Below, in pieces: positions 10,143-22,805 of a DNA stretch of 64,000 bases. Source of the stretch: an uncultured Methanosarcinales archaeon. Lineage in GTDB: Archaea > Halobacteriota > Methanosarcinia > Methanotrichales > Methanotrichaceae. The stretch is taken from NCBI GenBank assembly GCA_963843555.1, contig CAWJKV010000003.1, positions 96,001 to 160,000 of the forward strand. The letters are read 5' to 3'. How positions within the stretch are numbered: position 1 is the stretch's first letter; each line of letters starts with the position of its first letter. The notes beneath the pieces were generated by a model that had not been told where the DNA came from, did no database searches, and saw only the letters and a program-made list of their open reading frames with translations. The position numbers and the translations under genes are program-made.

Positions 10143-10952
10143 ATGAAAGTTGCACTCAAGCTCGCCTATCTGGGCGATAACTACTACGGCTTCCAGCGCC
10201 AGCCGGATCTGGTTACTGTGGATAGTGAAGTCAGAAAAGCGTTGACAAAGATCGGCGTCATCCACGGCGACTTCTGCTATGCGGGCAGGACGGACAGGGG
10301 CGTCTCGGCTCTGGGCCAGGTCATCGACTTTTGGATCGATGAGGAAAAAGAGAAATTGACCCGGCCCAGGTGCGTCAACGGCCGGCTGCCCCGCGATATC
10401 TGGACCTGGGCCTGGGCACGGGCGCCTATAGGTTTCAGCGCCCGCTGGAATGCTCAGTGGCGGGAGTACCGCTACCTCCTCTGGCATCCGGGCCTTGACA
10501 CGGAGTCGATGCGCGGCGCTGCTGCGCTCCTATTGGGCGAGCACGATTTCCGGAACTTCTCCTCTGCCAAGGTAGGTACTGTAAAGTCGGTGCAAAAGTT
10601 GGAGATCTCTGAGCAGAATGGCCTGTTCACCTTCGACATTCGGGCGGATGGCTTTCTCTGGAATATGGTGCGCAAGATCGTGGGCGCCCTGGAGAAGGTG
10701 GGCTCGGACCAGAAGGATATGAGATGGTTCAAAGATCTTCTCCGGCCGGAGCTCAACTATGGCGCGCCCACCGCCCCAGCCGAAGGCCTCATCCTCATGG
10801 AGGTTGGCTATAAGGGGCTGGAGTGGCAGGTGGACGGGTACTCCCGGGCACGGGCGGCCAAGGGACTGGCAGCGACGGTGCAGAGCAGGATGGCGGGGGC
10901 GAATGTGGCGAGAGTGATGGAGAGGGCGATGGAATTGGATGCGGGGGATTAG
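10143..10952 (+). CDS. truA: tRNA pseudouridine(38-40) synthase TruA
   Basis: AYLG..YYGFQRQP, AGRTDRGVSALGQV, GEHDFRNFS, FLWNMVRKIVG, APAEGLIL. Confidence 0.96.
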   Translation: MKVALKLAYLGDNYYGFQRQPDLVTVDSEVRKALTKIGVIHGDFCYAGRTDRGVSALGQVIDFWIDEEKEKLTRPRCVNGRLPRDIWTWAWARAPIGFSARWNAQWREYRYLLWHPGLDTESMRGAAALLLGEHDFRNFSSAKVGTVKSVQKLEISEQNGLFTFDIRADGFLWNMVRKIVGALEKVGSDQKDMRWFKDLLRPELNYGAPTAPAEGLILMEVGYKGLEWQVDGYSRARAAKGLAATVQSRMAGANVARVMERAMELDAGD

Positions 10953-11280
10953 GAACCTGGGTATGAGGTTCAATTAGGATCAGCTTTTTCTGCAGGGATC
11001 TCCTGGGGCGGATAGCAGTTCTCAACCATGCGGGCTTCAATCTCGCGAAGCATTTCAGGACTATTTTCAGATGATGCATCTTACACGTACTAAATTATAT
11101 ATTTAGGAAATAGGCCACAGAACTTCTTTGAGGGCTCAGGCCAAAACCTGCAAGTTATGCATAGCGCCTTATGCAACCATCCAAGTGGCCTAAAACTGGC
11201 CTTCAAGCCGATGGTGTGGGTGCCCCTGAGCCGCCCTCTTTAGCTTTTCTGGCCCGCTCCTGGGCCTCCTCATCCATGAA

Positions 11281-11955
11281 CTATGTTATGTGGTTATTGA
11301 GATAATCCAGCAAATTATCAAAACTCTTCGCTAGTTCCCCTCCTTTTTTTGTCTCTTCATTGTAAGCAAGGAAGTTGTATAGTTTTGTTTGCTCATCATA
11401 CCATCTTTGTTCAAGTCTATGCTCATCACAATTTTTGATATTGTTTTTAATCTTTTTTGTTGTAGCTTCAATTTCCATTTGAAACTTATCTGCTTCCTTT
11501 TGTTGTTTGCTAATATCGTCAGTTTTGGTTTTTAAATCATCGGAGTAAGGAAATGCCAAGCTAATTGAGCCAATAATAACCCATAAATCTCGATTGGCTT
11601 TAGCTAATTCCAATTCGTATTCATCACTTTTTTTGATTGAATCCCAATACTTTTCAAGAGATTGCGTATACTTTTTTTTGCTATCTGCGTCCGTTGATTT
11701 CTCTAATAATTCGCACCTACAATCCAAAAAACCACTTCTCATATTAAAAGCAAATAAAGAGCCGTATAAGCCTAACATAAGTGATTTTTGGCCTTTTAAT
11801 TGGCTAAAGAGTTGTTGCCGGTTCTTTCGAAAATCGGTTTCGATTTTTTGTCCCTCTATTTTGTATGTAACGATACCTGTAACCAAGCCGCCAACTAAGG
11901 CACCAAGGATGCCAGCAGCTCCAGAGATAACTTCAGGTTGTACCATATATAACAT
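11281..11955 (-). CDS. Hypothetical AT-rich protein with N-terminal membrane anchor and charged helical body
   Basis: 224-aa ORF, TM segment AAGILGALVGGLVTGIVTY, Lys/Glu-rich remainder, visibly AT-rich relative to flanks. Confidence 0.7.
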   Translation of the reverse strand: MLYMVQPEVISGAAGILGALVGGLVTGIVTYKIEGQKIETDFRKNRQQLFSQLKGQKSLMLGLYGSLFAFNMRSGFLDCRCELLEKSTDADSKKKYTQSLEKYWDSIKKSDEYELELAKANRDLWVIIGSISLAFPYSDDLKTKTDDISKQQKEADKFQMEIEATTKKIKNNIKNCDEHRLEQRWYDEQTKLYNFLAYNEETKKGGELAKSFDNLLDYLNNHIT

Positions 11956-12339
11956 CTTAGTCTATATGTACTAAAATATTTCTACATATCCTGGCTCGCA
12001 GGTGCAATAGACATGAGCAGCATCCTTTAGCTAGTCAAATTTTCCTTTTTTTGATTATCAAATTTAACGTATTAATCCTGAAAGCATGAACCCTAAGCTG
12101 GTCACCTCTTTAGTTACACCTTCTCCGAGATATTCATTGAGCCCTGAAATGTGCCGCAAGATTACGTTTTTATGTGAGAATTAGTTCTGGTACATTTTGC
12201 ATAAAATTTTTCACAATGACGTAGAACTATTTCCAGTTTTTACGCTCCCCGGCTGTAAGTTACTATACTGTCTTTTTTGTCTGGAGGCGGTTCTGCGAAG
12301 GTCTGGAAATGGAAAAGAAAGCCCTAACATATTTATATA

Positions 12340-12530
12340 AACATCCTTCTAGTCTCAAATCCTTTGAGGTAATTCTCCCAATTGAGTCTCATTGAGAACT
12401 GACCGGACCTCATCGGCATGCTGCTATCTTCAAAGCTCGTCCCGCGTTTGAGTCGATGAGGTTAGTCAATCGCCCCACCAATCCAGAGACTTCTTTTTCA
12501 ATTCCAGTGAAGCATCATTTTCTATGAACT
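12340..12530 (-). pseudogene. Decayed copy of the antitoxin-3'/PIN-toxin-5' junction of the 12720-13342 TA module
   Basis: ggacctcatcggcatgctgct...cgtttgagtcgatgaggt..tcaatcgc.ccaccaatccag.gac matches 13070-13200 with substitutions and deletions. Confidence 0.8.
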
Positions 12531-12531
12531 A

Positions 12532-12682
12532 GCCTGCCGAGGGCTTCATGGATATAGGCTGCAGGGTGCCGGACTCGCATGTGGGCAAGCGCTCGCGGGC
12601 GCGAGCGGCCAAGGGACTGGCAGCGACGGTGCAGAGCAGGATGGCGGGGGCGAATGTGGCCAGGGAGATAGAGAGGGCAATG
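12532..12682 (+). repeat. Direct repeat R2 of the truA 3' end
   Basis: 56-bp stretch 12605-12660 identical to truA 10854-10909; still encodes RARAAKGLAATVQSRMAGANVAR. Confidence 0.95.
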
Positions 12683-12719
12683 AGGCAGTGTGACGAAACC
12701 GCGAGAACAGAGTGTCGCT

Positions 12720-13139
12720 TCAATTATAATCTGCTTTTTCGGCCATGATCATTGCCGGCGTTTTTCTTTGAATATTGGTTGAGTCGAAGTCCTTGTCGAA
12801 GCTCACAAGTATTAGATCATTATTTCGTGCTGCAACATATTGATACGCATCGTCGAAATCCAGATCCTGCTCTCTCATTGCAGATAATAAATCCCGCAGA
12901 TCTGCAAGGCTCAATGCGATTCTCTTGACTCCAGTCTCCTCTAAAAGATCCGATAGAAAAGCTGCAAATACATCTTCCTTTTTCAGGCGAGAAGTTATTA
13001 TTCCAATTGAATAGAGCGTGAATTCCGTTAGAGATATTTCGTCCAACTGAACCATCTGCAAGAACTTGCGGACCTCATCGGCATGCTGCTGCCTTAAGAG
13101 TAATTCTAGCCATACGTTTGAGTCGATGAGGTAGCTCAA
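12720..13139 (-). CDS. PIN-domain (VapC-like) toxin
   Basis: YLIDSNVWLE, LDFDDAYQY, LVSFDKDFD acidic PIN motifs; TTG start overlaps the antitoxin TGA. Confidence 0.9.
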   Translation of the reverse strand: MSYLIDSNVWLELLLRQQHADEVRKFLQMVQLDEISLTEFTLYSIGIITSRLKKEDVFAAFLSDLLEETGVKRIALSLADLRDLLSAMREQDLDFDDAYQYVAARNNDLILVSFDKDFDSTNIQRKTPAMIMAEKADYN

Positions 13140-13342
13140 TCGCTCCACCAATCCAGGGACTTTTTCTGCAATTCAAGAGAAGTATAATTTTCTTTGAACT
13201 CGGCCAATCCGCCCGCCCAGTCAAACCGTAGCTTTTTGCGCTTGGGTTTGCTCTTTTTTTCAGCGAGGTATTGGGCGAAATCCAGAACCTCTTGCTGGTG
13301 TTGGGAGGAAAGTTTGGCCATAAGTTCGCGGATCTGCTCCAT
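13136..13342 (-). CDS. Putative antitoxin, DUF2281-like
   Basis: 68 aa, QQEVLDFAQYL..K, FDWAGGL, ELQKK..DW; coupled upstream of the PIN gene. Confidence 0.85.
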   Translation of the reverse strand: MEQIRELMAKLSSQHQQEVLDFAQYLAEKKSKPKRKKLRFDWAGGLAEFKENYTSLELQKKSLDWWSD

Positions 13343-13446
13343 AGATGTATTTTGGAGGCTTATGGATGATATAATTTCCTATTTGCATCACACAACGCGG
13401 ACCTGAGCACCAGAAGTCTTGCCTAGCTGAACGGGGGATTCAGGCA

Positions 13447-13627
13447 GCCTGCCGAGGCCCCCATCCTCATGGATGCAGGCCACCAGGGGCTGGACTCGCA
13501 TGTGCACGAGCCCTCCCGGGCGCGGGCGGCCAGGGGGCTGGCCAGCGACGGTGCAGAGCAGGATGGCGGGGGCGAACGTGGCCCGGGAGATCGGGCGGGC
13601 GATGGGATTGGATGCGGGGGATTAGGA
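13447..13627 (+). repeat. Direct repeat R3 of the truA 3' end (includes stop-codon context)
   Basis: gcctgccgagg..atcctcatgga...gcgacggtgcagagcaggatggcgggggcgaa...ttggatgcgggggattagga aligns to 10773-10954. Confidence 0.95.
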
Positions 13628-13696
13628 CGATCTGGTCTAGCAAGGCGAGAGCATAGATGCAAAGATATACTAAACATCAGCATAACATTAGAACAT

Positions 13697-13948
13697 ATGA
13701 GCGAGATAGTTTTGCAGGTGCCGGATGATGCATTACTGGCCCTGAAGATGTCCCCGGATGAATTAGGAAAGGAGCTAAGGTTGGCAGCTGCCGTGAAGCT
13801 CTTTGAATTGGGAAAACTATCATCAGGGGCGGCAGCCAGATTGGCAGGAATACCAAGAACGCTCTTCCTTGCTAAACTTGCGAACTACGGTGTTGATACC
13901 TTTCGCCTGACAGAAGAAGACCTCACGGCGGAGGCACCTCTTGTCTGA
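13697..13948 (+). CDS. UPF0175-family putative antitoxin
   Basis: ATG 13697; ELRLAAAVKLFELGKLSSGAAARLAGIPR..FL..L..YGV HTH-like signature. Confidence 0.88.
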   Translation: MSEIVLQVPDDALLALKMSPDELGKELRLAAAVKLFELGKLSSGAAARLAGIPRTLFLAKLANYGVDTFRLTEEDLTAEAPLV

Positions 13949-14426
13949 AGTCATATGCAATACATCGCCTTTGCAGTATTTGCATCAGATAGGTCAACTA
14001 AGTATCCTCCAGGCTCTTGTCGGATCTATTATCGTTCCTCCTGCCGTCCTAATTGAACTGGATGCTGGTATGGCAAAAGGACTGGACCTACCACAACCTG
14101 AGAACCTCAAATGGGTCAGAATACAAGCACCTGTCAGCGCCCGGGCCGCATCTCTAATAACAGATCTCGGACCTGGAGAATCCCAGGTACTAATGCTGGC
14201 CCTTGAAATGCCCGGAAGCATTGCACTTCTGGATGATGCACTGGCACGCCGCGTGGCCATAGCAAATGGAATACCGATTAAGGGCACTTTAGGATTGCTT
14301 CTGGACGCAAAACGTGTGGGCCACCTAAATGCGGTGGAGCCTTCTCTTGATAAGCTCCAGGAGCTGGGCTTCCGCCTCTCTCAACAGACACGGGAAGCTG
14401 TATTGAAGCTGGCTGGAGAGTCATAG
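13941..14426 (+). CDS. DUF3368 PIN-like toxin
   Basis: VICNTSPL, LGPGESQVL.LA, LLDDALARRVA, GTLGLLL.AK; overlaps the UPF0175 gene. Confidence 0.88.
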   Translation: MSEVICNTSPLQYLHQIGQLSILQALVGSIIVPPAVLIELDAGMAKGLDLPQPENLKWVRIQAPVSARAASLITDLGPGESQVLMLALEMPGSIALLDDALARRVAIANGIPIKGTLGLLLDAKRVGHLNAVEPSLDKLQELGFRLSQQTREAVLKLAGES

Positions 14427-14479
14427 GGACTCTCACGATCTTTGGTGATGGCGATTTAATCTATAGGATATGGTCTTAT

Positions 14480-14629
14480 GGGCTGCCCGAGTCTGGACTC
14501 ACATGTGCACGAGCCCTCACGGGCGCGGGCGCCGGGGGGTCTGGCGGCAACGGTGCAGAGCAGGATGGCCGGGGCGAATGTGGCCGGGAGATGGAGAAGG
14601 CGATGGGATTGGATGCGGGGGATTAGGAA
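14480..14629 (+). repeat. Direct repeat R4 of the truA 3' end
   Basis: ctggcggcaacggtgcagagcaggatggccggggcgaatgtggcc...ttggatgcgggggattaggaa; translates GLAATVQSRMAGANVA. Confidence 0.93.
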
Positions 14630-14942
14630 AGCCGCGTTATCGGCACATTTTCTTTCTGATAAGTCATAAGAATACAAATATCACACTTTATCGCGGTTGG
14701 ATATGATAACGGTTCTCAATTATACCTTTGTTTACAATAATTTAAACGCCTATACCGCATACAAAATACATACAATACAACTTTTTTTTGATAGCTACCA
14801 GTTATTATTATCCGTTATTATTAGTGCAACTCGAGTTTTAACTTCTGCATTTTTGATTCATAAATGTAATAAGATATCAGTAGAACTATCCTTAATTCTT
14901 AGGAACAGTTAAATACTATTATGAAAGATCCTTGATTGTAAA

Positions 14943-15018
14943 ATTGGATGAAATTTGCCTAAGTGATTTGCATATTGGATGAAACTCTCTAATATAGTCA
15001 CTATTGGATTATCCAATA
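14943..15018. promoter_or_regulatory. Putative transcription-factor operator array upstream of the pilin-like gene
   Basis: ATTGGAT at 14943, 14974 and 15003; perfect palindrome TATTGGAT-T-ATCCAATA at 15002-15018. Confidence 0.55.
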
Positions 15019-15065
15019 TGGCATATACTTAAGACAAAATTCGGCCACATCAAGGAGGGAGAATA

Positions 15066-15569
15066 ACGAACAAATTAATAAAATTATATTTGACCATCGC
15101 TTTGGTCGCGATGGTATCGCTGGTAGCATCAGCATCTGCATCGTCTTTGACTCTGTCCGCGACTATGCCTCAAATTCTCTCGGTTCAATTTCCTGCATCT
15201 AATAACTTCGGGGATTTGATTCCGGGTAATACAGTCACGGCGGGTAACCAGGTTCATATCGAAGGCAACTGCTATTGGGCTTTATCTGTCTATGCCCAGG
15301 ATGACGGATACGGACACCACGGATATCTGACGCAGCAACACCCATCATCTATGCATGACTGGATACGTAATCCTGTATCTATGTACATCCCTACGTATGG
15401 GATAGGTCCAACGTCTCTTGAGTATTATTATAATTATAGCCCAATATCGGTTACGAGTGGCTTTGGTCCCATGGATATATACTATCAGCTTTCAACGATG
15501 TCTTCAGGAAGCGAAGATTCCAGATATCCATACACCATTACACTGGATTTCGTCCTAACTGCACAATAA
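15066..15569 (+). CDS. Secreted pilin-like/WxL-like beta-sandwich subunit; start probably ACG 15066 (TTG 15090 is the alternative)
   Basis: SD aggaggga at 15053; signal peptide NKLIKLYLTIALVAMVSLVASASA; WALSV motif; C-terminal strand YTITLDFVL. Confidence 0.7.
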   Translation, partial: TNKLIKLYLTIALVAMVSLVASASASSLTLSATMPQILSVQFPASNNFGDLIPGNTVTAGNQVHIEGNCYWALSVYAQDDGYGHHGYLTQQHPSSMHDWIRNPVSMYIPTYGIGPTSLEYYYNYSPISVTSGFGPMDIYYQLSTMSSGSEDSRYPYTITLDFVLTAQ

Positions 15570-15601
15570 GGCCAGCTGATGATTAAGTGATATGGACAAT
15601 C

Positions 15602-15646
15602 GAGCTGAGCCATTCCTGTATAAGGAAGCTCGGCTCAATTTTTTTA
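15602..15646 (+). terminator. Hairpin plus T-tract after the pilin-like gene
   Basis: gagctgagc-ca-ttcct gtata aggaa-gctcggctc followed by aattttttt. Confidence 0.6.
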
Positions 15647-15959
15647 AACACGATAATACTTGAAACCCTCAATAATCTATGCTATTTCACTTAAGATTTT
15701 GCAACTCAGAAAATTCTTGCACTATCAAGAGCGATGGTGGTTCAATTGAGAATTAGGAGAGATTTGAACTTCTCTTTACCATAAACTTATTAAAGTAGAA
15801 AGCAATATCTAATATAGCCTTCAAGGGTTAAATAAATGGTGAAAAGACGATATGGCATTAATCGATCGTGTTAAGCTGAATATATTACTACTAAAATGGC
15901 TGTAATTCAGATCGATTTAGCATATAAATTAGAAATTTATTTGAGAGGTGTATTAGAAG

Positions 15960-16778
15960 ATGATATTCAAAAGCGTGGTAGTAGCGCCTGCATTGAGTCT
16001 AGCTCTGATTTTGTTGGCTGTTATGCCTGCTTGTGCAAACCTTACACTGGTTGGAGCGAAATATGAGGCTAATGTTATTCCAGGACAGCATATTGAAGAT
16101 GAAATAGAATTAAACCTCGGGGCTGAAGATCTCCCTGTGGATATAATGACGGAAATTCTTGGTTTAGGCCAGAGTCCTAATGGAGTATATACCATGATCG
16201 AATCTGATCAGGACGATGGACTCTATTCAGCCAAGCCTTTCTTAAATATATCACCCTCTAATTTCCATCTCAATCCTGGTGAATCAAAAAAGATGCTGAT
16301 CAGCGGTGACGTGCCCTTGGACATTGGAGATGGGTCAAGATACGCTCTGGCTAGCATTCGAGGGATATCTAAAGGAAGCGGACCCGTAGGGGTATCACTG
16401 GTGCTTAATGTTCCTATCCTGCTCAATATCACTGGTTCTAAACTCTCCAAAACAGCCGATATTGTGGGCCTGGACACGAGCAAGCCGGTCAATAATAATT
16501 GGAAGAACGCAACGCTTACGCTAAAGAACACCGGAAATACCAATTATGCGACCATAGTTAAGGCTGTCATGAAAGATGGTGAAGGAAATGTCATTGCCAA
16601 TTCTACAACCATCAATCAAGTTCTCCCGCCAATATTACCTGGAAAGTTGAGGGAATATGCGCTTCAGCTCAAATCCAACCGGACAATTGAGCCTGGAAAT
16701 TATGCTCTGAATGCAACAGCCTACTTGGAAGACGGGACTGTTCTAGCCAGCAAAGAAACGGCATTTGATGTTGTTTAA
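15960..16778 (+). CDS. Secreted two-domain Ig-like protein, chaperone (PapD)/DUF916-like
   Basis: Signal peptide; IPGQHIEDEIELN, ISPSNFHLNPGESK, VSLVLNVPILLNITG, LKNTGNT, ILPGKLRE, PGNYAL. Confidence 0.7.
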   Translation: MIFKSVVVAPALSLALILLAVMPACANLTLVGAKYEANVIPGQHIEDEIELNLGAEDLPVDIMTEILGLGQSPNGVYTMIESDQDDGLYSAKPFLNISPSNFHLNPGESKKMLISGDVPLDIGDGSRYALASIRGISKGSGPVGVSLVLNVPILLNITGSKLSKTADIVGLDTSKPVNNNWKNATLTLKNTGNTNYATIVKAVMKDGEGNVIANSTTINQVLPPILPGKLREYALQLKSNRTIEPGNYALNATAYLEDGTVLASKETAFDVV

Positions 16779-16789
16779 TTTATACCATC

Positions 16790-17046
16790 GGGAGCGCTGA
16801 GGGTCACGAATACTCCGATCTTTAGGTGGGGATGAAGTGAACCCTCGCACAATTTTTCAGGCTCCATCAATCAATGAACCGTTAATCGTGGAATAAAGGG
16901 GATCCGAGCAATAGGACTCGATGATTTCTGGATTCCGGAAAACGGCGGCGTGCGGCCCGAAGCATACCCTGTCTTTCAATGCATTAGTTATATATATGAT
17001 AAGTAACTTACTCATATTATTATGTGTGTTTCAGTCTTGCCAGTTA
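16790..17046. mobile_element. Orphan IS200/IS605-type end / structured leader remnant (no tnpA or tnpB)
   Basis: Hairpin gagggtcac-gaatactccgatctttaggtggggatgaa-gtgaaccctc (16799-16846) with a CTTTAG loop typical of IS200/605 subterminal palindromes; no coding sequence follows. Confidence 0.55.
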
Positions 17047-17138
17047 TTAAAACCAACTCAATTAAATTTTGCTGTACTTCTTTAATTTATTATATAGCGG
17101 AATGGAGAAAGATCAGAATATAATCACCGAAAAACATT

Positions 17139-17747
17139 TTGATAGTATTGCATGGCAAAGGAAAAGGGGAAAAAATGGAGTACATGAAGGATCCAATAGA
17201 CTGGAAGGCTTCACATGGACTCAAATCATTTTTTTTCCTTATTATTATAATAATTCTCTTAACTGAAATCTGCTTTGCAGAACAAACACCAATCATTGAG
17301 GCCGCACCTGGGCAGCCTATCGGAAATGTATTGACTTTAGGCGGGGATTCTGGCGGGATTACGATTGGTGTATCTCCCATTATCTCAGATTGGATCCTGG
17401 ATCCAACTAAACCAATTTGCACCAGGGAAACCACCCTTGAGATAGATTGCAGAGGACCCTGGAGGATCACTGTCTCAGCAGATGTACCAGCTCAAGGTCA
17501 TCTGGCTGAATATGATACATCCAGCTCTGCCTATGTCCCTGACGGAATAAGGCTGAAAGACTCTATGATCGTCATTGCCAAAGGAGGAAACAGCGTCGAC
17601 CTCTCTCATGGGGGAGTGCTTCTGGACGGTGATGGAAGAGCTACTGTTCTATTGACTTTCATCCAGAAGGCATCCTTGGATGATAAATCTCTGCCCTCTG
17701 GCAATATTTATCAAATTAATATAATCTTTAAAGGATTAAAACTCTGA
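17139..17747 (+). CDS. Second secreted pilin-like/WxL-like subunit (start uncertain, ATG 17175 possible)
   Basis: Hydrophobic signal FFFLIIIIILLTEICFA; PWRITVS and GHLAEY parallel YWALSV and GYLTQ of the 15066 protein; ends GNIYQINIIF. Confidence 0.7.
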   Translation: MIVLHGKGKGEKMEYMKDPIDWKASHGLKSFFFLIIIIILLTEICFAEQTPIIEAAPGQPIGNVLTLGGDSGGITIGVSPIISDWILDPTKPICTRETTLEIDCRGPWRITVSADVPAQGHLAEYDTSSSAYVPDGIRLKDSMIVIAKGGNSVDLSHGGVLLDGDGRATVLLTFIQKASLDDKSLPSGNIYQINIIFKGLKL

Positions 17748-17751
17748 GGGC

Positions 17752-20700
17752 ATGATGATCCTTCTATCTAAAACGTTGGCCGGAATCTATCGCTCGCGGT
17801 ACTACTACAAATCGGCCCCGAAATGGATCTCTGCAAAGGGACAGGGAGGACTCAGCAAATGGGGAAAGCATGTATCCTCCTGGATTCAAGCCTTCATGGT
17901 CCTATCCGTATTATTTGCTCTCGCTGAAGCATCAGGTCATGATACTGACCTTTATACTATCCAAATTGACCTTCCCGCAGAGATCATCCATGATGTGATG
18001 ATCATTGATACTCTTCCAAGTGGGCTGGTATATAGTGCAGGCAGCTTGAAGGTGACAGGCGCTGCTACCAATATGTCGGAGACTATAGCCTATCCAAATG
18101 ATGGCAGTCAGCCTGTGACCATAACCTGGAGCTTTGGCGATCTGGACAATTCTGCAGACGAAGACATTTTGATTCAATTTCAGGTTTTGGTAGCTGATAC
18201 GGATCAGAACAGGGATGGAATGATTTTAGCGCCAAGCGTAGCGCTTCTCCAATGGAGGGATCAAGAGGGGTTTGCTCAATCCAGCAGCACCAAATCAACT
18301 GCCGTTAGGATCATTGAGCCCGACCTCCAGATAAAGCAGCGATTCATGCCTCCATCTGCAAAGATCGGGGAGACTGTGACCTGCACCATTTCTCTTTGCC
18401 ACATACCCAGCAGCCACTCAGATGCCTTCGATGCGGAGGTTGTAGAAAACCTTCCTCAAGGATTGATTTACACACCCGGTTCAATGGAGATAGTCGCCGG
18501 GCCCAAAGGGAGGTGTGATGATTCTAATAGCCAAGAGCTACGATGGCACTTTGATAAGATAGATATGTCTTGGGCAAAGACTACCGAGATCCAGCTTAGA
18601 TATAAAGCAACTGTTGATAAAGGAGCTAAGCAGGGTTCAACGCTAAACGGCACTGCTGATCTATCCTGGGCTAGCAGCGTGGGAATCTATCCCGAAAAGA
18701 GAACCTATTTCGAGACGGCTAGTGGAAGCATAACTATCGCTTCCACGCCACCGGCATTCGTCATAACCGTAGCGGATTATCCCAATCCCATTCGCCCCGG
18801 CGATGAACTAACTTATGCAATTAATTACAAAAATATAGGAGGCTATGCTCAAGGCGCCGCAATTCAGGCCACCTACGATCCCAAAGTCGCCTTCGTCTCC
18901 GCCGTCCCCGCGCCCGACCAGGGCTCGGACAGCCAGTGGACGCTGGGCGACCTCATGAACGGGGCTTCGGGCACAATCGAGGTTAAGTTGGGCACCGGAT
19001 CATCTTTAGCGGACGGAACCTTGCTCACCAGTTCGGCCAGGATCGCCGACCAGGACGGCGTTTCTGCCCAGGATACTGCCATCACCAGGGTCATGACCAC
19101 CGCTCCAAACCTCCAGATCGAGAAGGCGGCCTCCGATCGGTTCATCCGGCCGGGAGGCGCTCTCAACTACACCATAACCTACGGCAACTCCGGAAATACG
19201 GAGGCTGAAAATGTCACCATAACCGATCTCGTTGACGGCAACCTTGACTTTGATCCTGCCGACGCCACCCCAAGAGCTAGCAAGATCTGGAGGGATGCAG
19301 AGGGGACGCATCTGTGGTGGAACGCGAGCATCCTAAAATCCGAGAGGCTCTCGCCGGGCGGTTCAGGCAAAATAGATATTCGCGTAGGCCTGCCCCCAGT
19401 TCCCGAACATCCCCGGTTCGACTGGGTTTACAACAACTACAAGATCGATTCAGACCTGAGTGAGGGCAAGTTCAAGATGCTGGAGACTGCAGTTATCCAC
19501 TCCCTCTATGTGAGGAAGATGGCGGAGGCGCAGGCCTATTTTGCGAATGAGATGGTTAACTACACCATTATTTACGGAAACGACCTGGCACTTGATGCCG
19601 ATAGAGCGGTGGTGATGGATGTTCTCCCTGATCCGGAATTTATGGAGTTCATCGAGGCAAATCCGCAGCCAACCGCCATAAAGAATAACGTTTTGGTTTG
19701 GGCACTGGGCACAATTCCTCCCAAAAGCAGTGGAACCATCAAGGTCTATCTGAGAATCAAAGAGAACCATTCTGATATCCGATTCAGATCCACCCAATCC
19801 GTCTCCGGCCAGGGCTACGTCCATTTTGACCAGAGGCTGGACACTGCCCAAAAGCCCAACAGCCTGACCAATTTCGCCAACATTACCGCCAGCTACATGG
19901 GTATGCCCGAATCCGATGAAAGCTCTGCAACTATAATGCTTGCTGATGCCCTGGGAACGGCAGTAAGCATCGTAGGCCACGGCAGCGGAACATATTCCAG
20001 GGATGAGGAGTCCCAGCTCTACTCCAAGGACAAGACAATTCAGATGAAGACCAGCCTCAAAGAGAGATACCGGGCATCCACTTTCTCTCTGCCCCGGGGC
20101 AGGTCCATAAACTACGACTCCAAATGGTCTGAGGTCCAGAGCGCCGAGAACCGGGTGACCGGGGCCTCTATGATTGAGCGTTATACGTATGCCAGCAGAA
20201 TCGACCGAAATAGTACCTTGAGCCTGGACAAGAACGGCTCTATCCTTGCCTCAGATACATCCTTCGAGGGAGCGGGCCATGTAGGACTGACGAAGCGCTC
20301 CAACGCAAACCTTCCATATTCATTTCAGGGAGCTTTTACCTACGAGTCGCAGGAGGACTACCTGGGCAGCTTCAAGGTCTCCACCAAATTTGATGAGTAC
20401 GGCAAGAATGCCAAATCCAGCCGCTCTGCCTCAGGAGTGGGTTATGCTGCTTCCGACAAACGCATCGGCACGAGCCAGAGAAGCTACGAATCTGGAACAG
20501 GCAACTATCAGGTAGAGGATCGCATTGAAACTCAAACCAACTACCTGGCCAAATACATAAACGCCTCATATGGATCCCTGAAATACAACTACACTCAGGA
20601 TTTTAGAGTACCTCTTTCCCAGAAATGGAGCGAAGGCATGTGGTCCAGATCGGGCACTCTGCCCGTCAAGGATTCGAATAGCTCTGAGCCAGCCAGTTTC

Positions 20701-21852
20701 ATTGGCGAGAAGTTCTCTCAGGCAGATTATCTCAAGAAGAACACTACAGCTAAAGGCCTTGACGAGATGGATACCGAGGCAGAGTTCTCAGGACGTGCTC
20801 AGTTCAAATCGCAATATGTCAAGTCAAAGGATCAGACCAGAGATGAGCTCAGCCTCTATGATGAATATGTTGGAAAATACAAAATAAACCGCAAGTTAAC
20901 GCTCAATGGGGCTGCAACATTCAATGAACCGCACCTTAGCATAAGTAAAGTTGGCAGCATGGATCCTGCGGGAGGCAGCTTCATCAACTACGTCCTGACT
21001 GTGGTAAATGATGGCAACCGCGCTCTAGGGCCGGTCTATGTCCTGGATCTCTTCCCACCTGGCACAGAGTATGTCTATTCCTCTTTGAGACCCTCAGAGC
21101 TCGCCTCCAACTCCGCCCAATGGACGTTGGTCAACCTGGGCATCGGATCAAGTTCTACCATCGAGCTGAAGCTCAATGCCACGGAGGATCAGGATAATCT
21201 AGTAAATCGAGTGCAAGCCCGCGGTGGCTATAACGATGAGTGGGTAAGCGCTCAGAATTATTCCGCCCTGCAGCTCAATTGGCTCTCCTGTTGTCCCCGG
21301 CAGTTGCGAGCTATCAAGACTGGCTACGTAGATGCCAATGACAGCACGCTGGTGCATTATAGAATTGCACTCAAGAACCGGGAGAGTTACATCATGGCGG
21401 CCACCATCAACGATGACTTGCCAGGTGGAATGAAGTTCATCAACTCCACAATGCAGCCGTCGGACTGCAGCTCCGGCCATGTGAGATGGAATGCCATAGA
21501 CCTGAAACCTAATGAGGTCAAAGTCATCGATTACTTGGCCAGAGCTCTTCAAAACGGTGTGTTCGTGAACCAGGCCCAGATAGAGACCACATCGTTCAAT
21601 GGATCTGATAGTGCATTTGCGGATGTCTCCTGTCAGGTGCAGATCAGGAGCAGCTCCAACTCTGGATCGGATTCGAACTGGAAGCCTCCTGCATGCTTTG
21701 GCCTCAACTGCACCCAGCAGGAATTTGAGAAGGACTGGAACGCTTGCGTAAGCTGCGCCGCTCAGGAACCAGAGACAGTACCCCAGGCGGGTCAGACCTG
21801 TCCAGCCTGCTCAGGAGGGAGCGGAGACGACGAAGGATATGATATTCCTTGA
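17752..21852 (+). CDS. Large secreted surface protein with multiple DUF11/fimbrial isopeptide-like Ig domains and a Cys-rich C-terminus
   Basis: Repeated D.LP.G..Y..GS, PG..L.Y.I.Y.N.G and W.LG motifs; probable real start is ATG 17859 after SD ggagga, offset by one extra G. Confidence 0.85.
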   Translation: MMILLSKTLAGIYRSRYYYKSAPKWISAKGQGGLSKWGKHVSSWIQAFMVLSVLFALAEASGHDTDLYTIQIDLPAEIIHDVMIIDTLPSGLVYSAGSLKVTGAATNMSETIAYPNDGSQPVTITWSFGDLDNSADEDILIQFQVLVADTDQNRDGMILAPSVALLQWRDQEGFAQSSSTKSTAVRIIEPDLQIKQRFMPPSAKIGETVTCTISLCHIPSSHSDAFDAEVVENLPQGLIYTPGSMEIVAGPKGRCDDSNSQELRWHFDKIDMSWAKTTEIQLRYKATVDKGAKQGSTLNGTADLSWASSVGIYPEKRTYFETASGSITIASTPPAFVITVADYPNPIRPGDELTYAINYKNIGGYAQGAAIQATYDPKVAFVSAVPAPDQGSDSQWTLGDLMNGASGTIEVKLGTGSSLADGTLLTSSARIADQDGVSAQDTAITRVMTTAPNLQIEKAASDRFIRPGGALNYTITYGNSGNTEAENVTITDLVDGNLDFDPADATPRASKIWRDAEGTHLWWNASILKSERLSPGGSGKIDIRVGLPPVPEHPRFDWVYNNYKIDSDLSEGKFKMLETAVIHSLYVRKMAEAQAYFANEMVNYTIIYGNDLALDADRAVVMDVLPDPEFMEFIEANPQPTAIKNNVLVWALGTIPPKSSGTIKVYLRIKENHSDIRFRSTQSVSGQGYVHFDQRLDTAQKPNSLTNFANITASYMGMPESDESSATIMLADALGTAVSIVGHGSGTYSRDEESQLYSKDKTIQMKTSLKERYRASTFSLPRGRSINYDSKWSEVQSAENRVTGASMIERYTYASRIDRNSTLSLDKNGSILASDTSFEGAGHVGLTKRSNANLPYSFQGAFTYESQEDYLGSFKVSTKFDEYGKNAKSSRSASGVGYAASDKRIGTSQRSYESGTGNYQVEDRIETQTNYLAKYINASYGSLKYNYTQDFRVPLSQKWSEGMWSRSGTLPVKDSNSSEPASFIGEKFSQADYLKKNTTAKGLDEMDTEAEFSGRAQFKSQYVKSKDQTRDELSLYDEYVGKYKINRKLTLNGAATFNEPHLSISKVGSMDPAGGSFINYVLTVVNDGNRALGPVYVLDLFPPGTEYVYSSLRPSELASNSAQWTLVNLGIGSSSTIELKLNATEDQDNLVNRVQARGGYNDEWVSAQNYSALQLNWLSCCPRQLRAIKTGYVDANDSTLVHYRIALKNRESYIMAATINDDLPGGMKFINSTMQPSDCSSGHVRWNAIDLKPNEVKVIDYLARALQNGVFVNQAQIETTSFNGSDSAFADVSCQVQIRSSSNSGSDSNWKPPACFGLNCTQQEFEKDWNACVSCAAQEPETVPQAGQTCPACSGGSGDDEGYDIP

Positions 21853-21872
21853 ATTGAATAGAACGGAAGTCA

Positions 21873-21903
21873 CTGGCGGCAACGGCCCCGGGAGATGGAG
21901 AGG
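21873..21903 (+). repeat. Internally deleted remnant R5 of the truA 3'-end repeat
   Basis: ctggcggcaacgg plus ccgggagatggaga match two separate blocks of R4. Confidence 0.6.
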
Positions 21904-22070: not shown

Positions 22071-22805
22071 ATGAAAAACGAATCCATCCGACTCATATGC
22101 CTCCTCTGTTTATTCCTGGTGATACTGGCCTCTCTGGGATGCATCCAGCCTGTAGAGCAGCCCGGGCCTATGCAGAATGAATCTCGTTACGTACCTTTGG
22201 GGGATGCCAAATCAGCGAATGCCAGAGTGGCTATGGGAGTGGGAATGCTCACCCTGGAAGGCGGGGCCAAGAACTTGATGGATGCAAACTTCATCTACAA
22301 CATAGCTTCCTGGAAGCCTGATGTCAGCTATTTTGTCTCCAATGGGGTGGGAGATCTGCAGGTTCATCAGCCATCTGGCACAGGAGCATATCTAAATGGT
22401 GTTGTTCGCAATGATTGGAATCTCCGGCTCAACGATGAAGTTCCCACAAACCTCATCCTGGAACTAGGGGCAGGAGACGGCGCCCTGCGTTTTGGAGGAC
22501 TCTCTTTGACAGGACTCGACGTGAAGTCGGGAGCTGGCACGCTAGCAATGGACTTCGACGGAATCTGGAAGAATGATCTCAACATAAGTATAGAGTCTGG
22601 AGTTGGCGAACTGACCATCGTGCTGCCCCAGAATACCGGAGCCATAGTTGAAGTCAGCCAGGGAATAGGCACTACTGAGGTGGGCAGCGGCCTGAAGGCC
22701 AATGGCGACTATTATAGCAATGACGCCTATGGAAAAACCGGCACGACACTGAGGATCAAAGTTACGTCTGGAGTGGGCAACACCAAACTCAGCCTTGCGT
22801 CTTGA
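22071..22805 (+). CDS. Lipoprotein, toast-rack/DUF2154-like adhesin family
   Basis: Lipobox LASLGC; repeated GxG beta units (GVGMLTL, GAGDGAL, GAGTLAM, GVGELTI, GIGT, GVGN). Confidence 0.75.
   Translation: MKNESIRLICLLCLFLVILASLGCIQPVEQPGPMQNESRYVPLGDAKSANARVAMGVGMLTLEGGAKNLMDANFIYNIASWKPDVSYFVSNGVGDLQVHQPSGTGAYLNGVVRNDWNLRLNDEVPTNLILELGAGDGALRFGGLSLTGLDVKSGAGTLAMDFDGIWKNDLNISIESGVGELTIVLPQNTGAIVEVSQGIGTTEVGSGLKANGDYYSNDAYGKTGTTLRIKVTSGVGNTKLSLAS

Follow-up and report, generated by a model that had tools for sequence, protein, structure and literature searches.

The window analysed here is a 64,000-nucleotide stretch (G000:C3:96001-160000) of the 2.68-Mb, 82% complete genome G000 of an uncultured Methanotrichaceae archaeon, and our subject is an array of cargo units behind truA, the gene for tRNA pseudouridine(38-40) synthase, in which the 3' end ("tail") of truA recurs between the units. 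Relatives are cited by handle, with G for genomes of the genus and L for fetched loci or contigs. Behind the functional truA end (R1), four cargo units are separated by three tail copies (R2 to R4) and a remnant (R5; Table 1). An initial annotation, made from the sequence alone, had placed tail recurrences at 12532-12682, 13447-13627 and 14480-14629; all three are present, with slightly shifted edges and in direct orientation with R1, and their BLASTN identities to truA are 82.5%, 83.3% and 82.6% for R2, R3 and R4 (E 5e-34, 4e-48 and 2e-33). The 56-bp exact match between R2 and truA that it had reported is also there, as the longest exact R1/R2 match (10854 versus 12605), as is the truA stop-codon context in R3 and R4, which is lost in R2. 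The deleted remnant that it had proposed at the end of the array (R5) is barely above chance by its local score (39.5 versus a maximum of 38.5 among 300 background windows) but is supported by G065, in which a nearly full tail copy stands at the homologous place, ahead of the toast-rack gene. Three further tail copies lie elsewhere in G000, two on C5 and one on C16, and two of these are beside toxin-antitoxin (TA) remnants, giving a total of seven copies at three loci. This limited scatter and the variable copy edges argue against a generic miniature inverted-repeat transposable element dispersed throughout the genome, which the initial annotation had named as a competing account; terminal inverted repeats were not reported for the tail copies, and target-site duplications got no separate search.

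Unit 1 is one broken copy of a DUF2281/PIN pair, 85% identical, that is split by an insert: the PIN 3' remnant lies behind truA and is followed by a fragment of a non-coding repeat (M), an orphan open reading frame (ORF), the PIN 5' and DUF2281 3' pieces and R2. The junction of these pieces with the R2 tail recurs at other loci in G000, G063, G068 and G069. As the initial annotation had suggested, the 224-aa orphan is AT-rich, with a guanine-cytosine (GC) content of 35%, and has neither family nor homolog: it had no Pfam or NCBIfam match and found only itself among 2158 candidates, and cluster-atlas searches with it and with a 358-aa cargo protein of relatives returned only unnamed clusters. 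For the other modules that had been proposed, Pfam supports the DUF2281/PIN and UPF0175/DUF3368 pairs of units 2 and 3 and the DUF11 protein of unit 4, and the identity given above supports the decayed TA copy of unit 1; the description of the unit 4 operon as a surface-structure operon is weaker and is only a reading of hydrophobic N-termini, because its three smaller genes have no Pfam match. Cargo strands are mixed, with units 1 and 2 on the minus and units 3 and 4 on the plus strand, and the units, 0.7-7 kb in size, contain no recombinase genes. The four-gene operon was found in one of the 58 other genomes of the genus (G006), at a different locus between an arginase-family gene and a copy of the argH tail; there is no truA tail there, and the duplicated argH 3' end (~380 bp, 84%; L262:8226-9514) lies next to the operon. 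In G065, other cargo takes the place of the operon.

Two sequences related to repeats lie within these units. Repeat M is ~350 bp long and non-coding, with 13 matches in G000; in addition to the fragment in the window (11087-11197), copies are at C10:19480, C16:88041, C3:177790, C5:24778 and C7:111795, and the far end of M repeatedly adjoins the 3' end of a convergent cargo gene. M matched no structured RNA in Rfam and no protein family in Pfam and had one weak homolog, and a dif-like motif in it was dropped because other M copies do not contain it. The intergenic stretch at ~16776-16970 inside the operon matches multi-copy repeats of other genomes of the genus, with five matches in G058 and five in G020, and public runs cover it with very high contig depth; it is likely a small dispersed element.

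Table 1. Features of the truA array and of related loci; positions without a contig name refer to the window.
Feature	Position	Strand	Support
truA, tRNA pseudouridine(38-40) synthase gene, anchor gene	10143..10952	+	PF01416 E 6e-29; TIGR00071 above cut-off
R1, functional truA 3' end, source of copies	10776..10956	+	BLASTN comparison
Decayed PIN 3'-end remnant and leader	10966..11086 (limits approximate)	-	85% over 220 nt to L017; homologous leader after R4 in G065
5' fragment of repeat M	11087..11197	+	
AT-rich 224-aa orphan ORF, unit 1 cargo	11281..11955	-	GC 0.35
Decayed PIN 5' / DUF2281 3' fragment fused to R2	12404..12530	-	
R2, mosaic tail copy with 56-bp exact truA match and foreign 3' end	12530..12697	+	
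PIN-domain toxin gene	12720..13151	-	PF01850 E 3e-13
DUF2281 putative antitoxin gene	13136..13342	-	PF10047 E 2e-14
R3, tail copy; upstream junction in common with G009 tail copy	13446..13627	+	
UPF0175 putative antitoxin gene	13697..13948	+	PF03683 E 8e-26
DUF3368 putative toxin gene	13941..14426	+	PF11848 E 1e-12; directly behind truA in G065
R4, tail copy, 5'-truncated	14474..14629	+	
Four-gene operon (159, 272, 202, 1366 aa; last with DUF11 repeats)	15090..21852	+	Pfam for DUF11 protein
R5, deleted tail remnant closing the array	21873..21903	+	Weak alone; nearly full copy at same place in G065
Toast-rack domain gene, distal flank common to G065	22071..22805	+	PF17115
alaS end duplication with cargo	G000:C5:58583-59602		
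Fe-S gene end duplication with cargo	G000:C2:162857-166943		
adk end duplication with cargo	G000:C8:1924-4954		
mutS 5' head duplication with cargo	G000:C10:25508-28060		
Fe-S integrase subfamily and G041 att-like repeat loci	L090:368-1252, L091:3928-4812, L092:2884-3759, L128; L094:2850-2951		

Turnover behind truA and similar layouts at other core genes

The truA tail was matched in 54 of the 59 genomes of the genus; 45 of these were fetched, and 44 loci hold the truA end. A second set comprised 76 truA loci from named records, and R_G021c61 was excluded from copy counts as a likely continuation of truA split across contigs. A second same-strand tail within ~10 kb is present at 11 of the 44 loci, which is a lower bound because many contigs end early; in the 76-locus set, a self-copy within 8 kb was found in seven loci, all from close relatives (TruA at least 82% identical). 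The comparison across the genus that the initial annotation had proposed documents that the tail-bounded cassettes behind truA vary between relatives in number, content and order and, thus, that turnover is real. The closest relative, G065 (88%), has different cargo in a different order, i.e. truA, UPF0175/DUF3368, tail, 5.4 kb of other cargo including an IS1634 gene and an integrase remnant, tail and toast-rack gene, and the leader that follows truA in G000 stands after R4 in G065. In G008 and G009, the order is truA, PIN, DUF2281 and tail. A cassette encoding proteins of 84 and 358 aa is truA-proximal in G012, G013 and G049, and fronts different older contents in G012 and G013. In the Methanotrichaceae outgroups (L198, L208, L210 and L211), truA is directly followed by a methyltransferase gene; this arrangement likely represents the empty state.

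The tail also bounds cargo at a second site, away from truA, between a 186-aa gene and a CbiT-like methyltransferase gene, and the cargo at this site differs among G000, G063, G065, G068 and L063. Metagenomic contig L062 carries an empty allele of the site, with a single hybrid tail composed of the 5' half of the left copy and the 3' end of the right copy; this collapsed allele shows a crossover product. In a pattern scan of metagenomes, 29 stretches were found, of which 13 contain the tail by hidden Markov model and 16 do not.

The initial annotation had described the system at truA. It is not confined to that gene, because G000 has a corresponding arrangement at alaS, an Fe-S gene, adk and mutS. 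Behind alaS, a DUF433/DUF5615 pair is followed by a 144-bp tail copy (94%), plus an upstream piece; the Fe-S gene, which lies after a gene for a cobW-type GTPase, has two TA pairs and two tail copies downstream; a 480-bp copy of the adk tail lies 2 kb downstream of the gene; and for mutS, a 336-bp copy of the head of the gene lies upstream, with small genes in between, one of them for an RHH protein. Copy lengths at such genes range from ~90 to 685 bp. Counted by eye, tandem tails are present in 13 of the 53 genomes with an alaS match and in 18 of the 52 with an Fe-S gene match. The cargo at these two sites consists mostly of TA pairs (DUF433/DUF5615, HicAB, ParE, MNT/HepT and DUF2281), together with some HEAT, S-layer and restriction-like genes.

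Several further features of these genomes were noted. The gene after truA varies across the genus (TBP, OTCase, QueC, shikimate dehydrogenase, flavodoxin or methyltransferase) while the gene upstream is constantly leuC-like; therefore, genome rearrangements also break at the truA end. A candidate defence module (L006:8592-13577 and L010:3701-12641) follows truA in G012 and G019, with genes for a 1660-aa NTPase, weakly like the anti-phage proteins Avs4/HyoA, and a CHAT-TPR protein. G005 has a longer truA fragment (residues 119-252, 48% identity; L009:9960-10262) far from truA, among glycosyltransferase and secreted-protein genes. Finally, G000 contains four more TA arrays (L130 to L133, at C11:20700-28400, C11:46800-52200, C16:47400-53500 and C9:77900-85100) with MNT/HepT, PIN/AF2212, HicAB, ParE, DUF4258 and UPF0175/DUF3368 genes; in each array, a GC-rich repeat of 200-400 bp, different from those of the others, recurs 6-7 times between the genes. 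These repeat families also occur in relatives, with ~13 matches in one G065 array, and neither a source gene nor a credible Rfam family was found for them.

Mosaic tails and the growth of the array

The tail copies are mosaics. In the alignment of 28 copies, copy-specific bases are confined to 10810-10844, with none 3' of 10844; five of them occur in no truA allele, and the bases at 10812, 10825, 10839 and 10840 occur in 57-81% of copies and in none of the truA alleles. In a tree of 67 tail rows with 120 or more aligned bases each, a clade separate from truA (support 99/91) unites 16 copies, all but one of which come from five close genomes, while the copies of G008, G009, G012 and G013 are placed among truA alleles. 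R2 to R4 have derived bases in common that none of the sampled truA alleles carries, and they cluster with copies from non-truA loci; a simple series of displacements of the host truA end is therefore an incomplete account of the copies. Displaced ends are evident: in G009, the distal copy has the end that is seen in truA of G005 and G022, two cargo-free sisters, and the next gene is their neighbour, flavodoxin, while G009 truA itself has a foreign end and both G009 copies carry host alleles over ~60 bp; similarly, the distal copy of G012 and its cargo match G051, and the 5' part of the G008 copy matches G052. In these hybrid pairs, the target end is restored and the displaced end lies at the far side, as in elements that integrate at an attachment (att) site. 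Another hallmark of such elements, i.e. a fixed crossover core with a sharp repeat edge, was not found at truA, where later gene conversion could hide a core: the switch point in G012 is further 3' than in G009 and that in L062 further 3' still, the 5' edges of copies are spread over profile positions 79 to 254, and among 40 truA genes no dip in synonymous variation indicates a conserved DNA core. These sequence patterns are better explained by reciprocal exchange between homologous tails, with conversion tracts and with crossovers at differing points, than by a fixed att core. Of the two routes that the initial annotation had offered for the tail as a serial attachment or recombination site, homologous recombination is better supported than an integrase acting in trans; the hybrid pairs document reciprocal exchange inside the tail.

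The mosaic make-up of the copies and the variation in their edges and crossover points make us lean towards the explanation that the array grew by homology-driven single-crossover insertion of small circles or donor fragments containing a tail plus cargo, with TA addiction likely retaining the units. Archaeal TA pairs are abundant and patchy, and many lack a mobility gene. Specifically, a fragment with a gene end and its neighbouring cargo would become a circle, or would arrive from a donor already flanked by tails. A single Campbell-type crossover in the truA tail or in an older copy would then restore the gene and push the old end downstream; loop-out between tails would reverse the insertion unless a TA pair penalises loss. 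Old copies would keep recombining with truA and with each other, by which their 3' halves would be refreshed and units permuted. The first tail-cargo junction may have arisen by illegitimate joining, for which Ku and the adjacent ATP-dependent ligase are candidates, or by aberrant excision of an integrative element, and non-coding copies could subsequently serve as their own landing pads, also away from truA. Ku is present in 39 of the 59 genomes, including G000, in which a Ku gene is followed by an ATP-dependent DNA ligase gene (G000:C10:134026-135844). We propose more tentatively, as a possibility that may well not hold, that this amounts to a recombinase-free capture route across the genus, in which Ku-based end joining would close foreign fragments with a conserved gene's end into circles, RadA crossover would let them in while leaving the gene unbroken, TA pairs would lock units in and non-coding copies of gene ends would become new landing pads. 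If true, such a route would build integron-like TA arrays and drive genome rearrangement without any mobile-element enzyme.

Several observations weigh against insertion by homology. The tail copies are only ~80% identical to truA, which is low for efficient RadA recombination, and the first arrival of tail copies at non-truA loci is left unexplained by this route. G012 and G049 have arrays but no Ku match (75% and 93% complete, respectively). The painted crossovers rest on stand-in relatives and not on observed events, and several assemblies have many indels that may be sequencing errors. A genome-wide count of terminal versus middle duplications did not discriminate (38 3'-end and 27 middle fragments downstream), and is uninformative because repeat proteins and spurious ORFs swamp it. 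Public sequencing runs, compared only as contigs and only from relatives (best share 0.18; no RNA run was listed), revealed neither a circle nor a read across a junction; in two runs, contigs that cover tail-TA-tail run back into tail sequence, which the repeats alone explain. Tyrosine integrases are also present in the genus. In G023, G074, G041 and G011, the Fe-S gene is followed after ~100 bp by a 295-aa tyrosine integrase (73-88% identity within its subfamily), and the 109-bp repeat at this gene in G041 is perfect and sharp-edged, a classical att scar; therefore, site-specific entry at protein-gene ends occurs in the genus. The wider family, with matches in 21 of the 59 genomes, sits at tRNA-like ends, at a sequence that we read as SRP-RNA-like (signal recognition particle) and at the scpA 3' end (L124). 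In addition, the tail copy on C16 of G000 has a frameshifted integrase at a distance of 2.2 kb, and a 37-aa integrase remnant lies inside the truA array of G065, the only one for truA among the matches listed, which do not include 58 weaker ones.

These integrases make it a serious though rather unlikely alternative that elements with a tyrosine integrase targeted and restored the truA 3' end, inserted in tandem and since decayed to remnants without an integrase, or that such an integrase moves small cassettes in trans, and that later homologous exchange blurred the edges; a three-step accretion model for integrative and conjugative elements (ICEs) and cis-mobilizable elements (CIMEs), as set out in PMC5704250, would provide the scheme. 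Against it, the search for a truA-linked integrase that the initial annotation had suggested returned no intact one at any of the 76 loci, and the 84 first- and second-slot ORFs at 46 truA loci, of which many ORFs belong to no family at all, included none for an integrase, a transposase or a homing endonuclease. Nor was an integrase found beside the 13 metagenome tails, either by tblastn with the broken G000 integrase or among the subset of ORFs run through Pfam. A dedicated integrase next to its site is present at the Fe-S gene in four genomes, and none that is intact was found behind truA. The varying edges and switch points described above, the 100-300 bp of homology that the copies retain ahead of the switch, which an attP would not need, and the lack of replication or transfer genes in the 0.7-1-kb units also argue against such elements, as does the search of plasmids and viruses that had likewise been suggested: phage and plasmid collections had no match to 12500-13660, and viral contigs had none to the tail pattern or to the C-terminal part of TruA. 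Without any incoming DNA, an ancestral truA-PIN-DUF2281 junction might have been duplicated locally and reshaped within lineages by unequal crossover, deletion and rearrangement between the tail copies and repeat M. A PIN or DUF2281 3' remnant behind most tails, the single clade of 16 copies, the presence of copies ahead of unrelated core genes such as the CbiT-like methyltransferase gene, and an order difference between G000 and G065 that duplication and differential loss could produce are all consistent with this; we consider it improbable, given that distant hosts have the same cassette junction with host-specific tails (G000 versus G009), that the four-gene operon has a patchy distribution and lies elsewhere in G006, that the cargo is low in GC, and that truA directly precedes the methyltransferase gene in the outgroups.

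The displaced host ends are also the scar expected from a free-standing homing endonuclease that carried a replacement truA end and seeded the copies, and NucS-like and HsdR-N-like nuclease genes come first behind alaS in G059, G042 and G019; as no first-slot ORF behind truA matched HNH, LAGLIDADG or GIY-YIG and the 358-aa cargo protein has only unnamed look-alikes, we regard this as very improbable. The initial annotation had called the array integron-like, a likeness that does not extend beyond appearance. Neither box of the attC consensus (RYYYAAC ... GTTRRRY) occurs on either strand of R1 to R4, folding of 25 copies (60 shuffles each) gave mean z-scores of +0.29 for the top and +0.48 for the bottom strand and thus no hairpin signal, and, with G000 82% complete, the four local integrases that were scored reach 42.5-93 bits versus the TIGR02249 cut-off of 265 for IntI. 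With repeats that derive from a gene and cargo in mixed orientation, where integron cassettes would generally have their ORFs in one orientation, it is thus highly improbable that an integron integrase uses the repeats as attC sites, even if a TA-rich cassette array without integrase would suit this idea and clusters of attC sites lacking integrases (CALINs) are common in archaea according to PMC9668308. An assembly artefact, finally, is next to inconceivable: no independent contig in the four public runs aligned spans the whole truA array, but the copies are 12-20% divergent and have different flanking sequences, and a homologous array with the same flanks is present in G065.

Comparison with known systems

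We conclude that the array is real, dynamic and more general than first thought, and that it is built from known parts, with an intermediate that we infer. It is likely that gene ends are landing pads at which ordinary homologous recombination takes place, and not parts of an integron, and that TA addiction holds the inserted units in place. Because the ingredients, i.e. 3'-end replacement, tandem accretion and repeat-bounded circles, are already known, the surprise is limited. The literature searched, whose scope left out most subscription papers and supplements, yielded no account of TA arrays built on the tail of truA or of another gene in Methanothrix; Methanothrix has no mention in the main text of PMC9668308, and apparent truA matches in PMC12540744 are a surname. 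The arrays offer a testable route by which a TA pair hitch-hikes on a conserved gene end as a homology handle, and, in dozens of genomes of a major methanogen that uses acetate, they preserve a readable record of the sequence in which units arrived and of where the crossovers lie. They also caution against taking every TA-rich repeat array that lacks an integrase for an integron, and the Fe-S gene and scpA 3' ends provide protein-gene attachment sites in a methanogen.

Four known systems resemble the truA array in part. Integrons and CALINs, including archaeal ones, have short TA-rich cassettes with a repeat after each and often no integrase nearby (PMC9668308), as does the truA array with its tail repeat; unlike them, the array has no attC boxes, fold or IntI, its orientation is mixed and its repeat comes from coding DNA. 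Streptococcal unconventional circularizable structures carry recombinase-free cargo between long direct repeats, excise as circles and have a conserved target site (PMC8401462). The truA array shares the recombinase-free cargo between long direct repeats, whereas those structures carry resistance genes and ride on ICEs; in the array, what is repeated is the end of a core gene of the chromosome, the cargo is mostly TA pairs and circles would be the presumed intermediate. At icd of E. coli, the prophage e14, inserted in the 3' part of the gene, is bordered on one side by intact icd and on the other by a pseudogene copy of its C-terminal part (icdC), and loop-out makes a chimeric gene (PMC13626634). 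The truA array likewise leaves an intact gene at one end and a displaced end copy at the other, but e14 is a single 15-kb prophage with SOS-induced site-specific excision, whereas the array units, at 0.7-7 kb and with no recombinase genes, stack serially with variable edges and at several core genes. In the tandem accretion of ICEs, integrative and mobilizable elements (IMEs) and CIMEs, elements stack serially at a gene 3' end and decayed, integrase-less members are bounded by repeats of the target end (PMC5704250). The truA array also stacks integrase-less units bounded by target-end repeats; it differs from these elements, which use site-specific integrases and conserved attL/attR sites, in that no integrase was found and no fixed crossover was seen at truA, while the Fe-S gene site fits the accretion model in four genomes.

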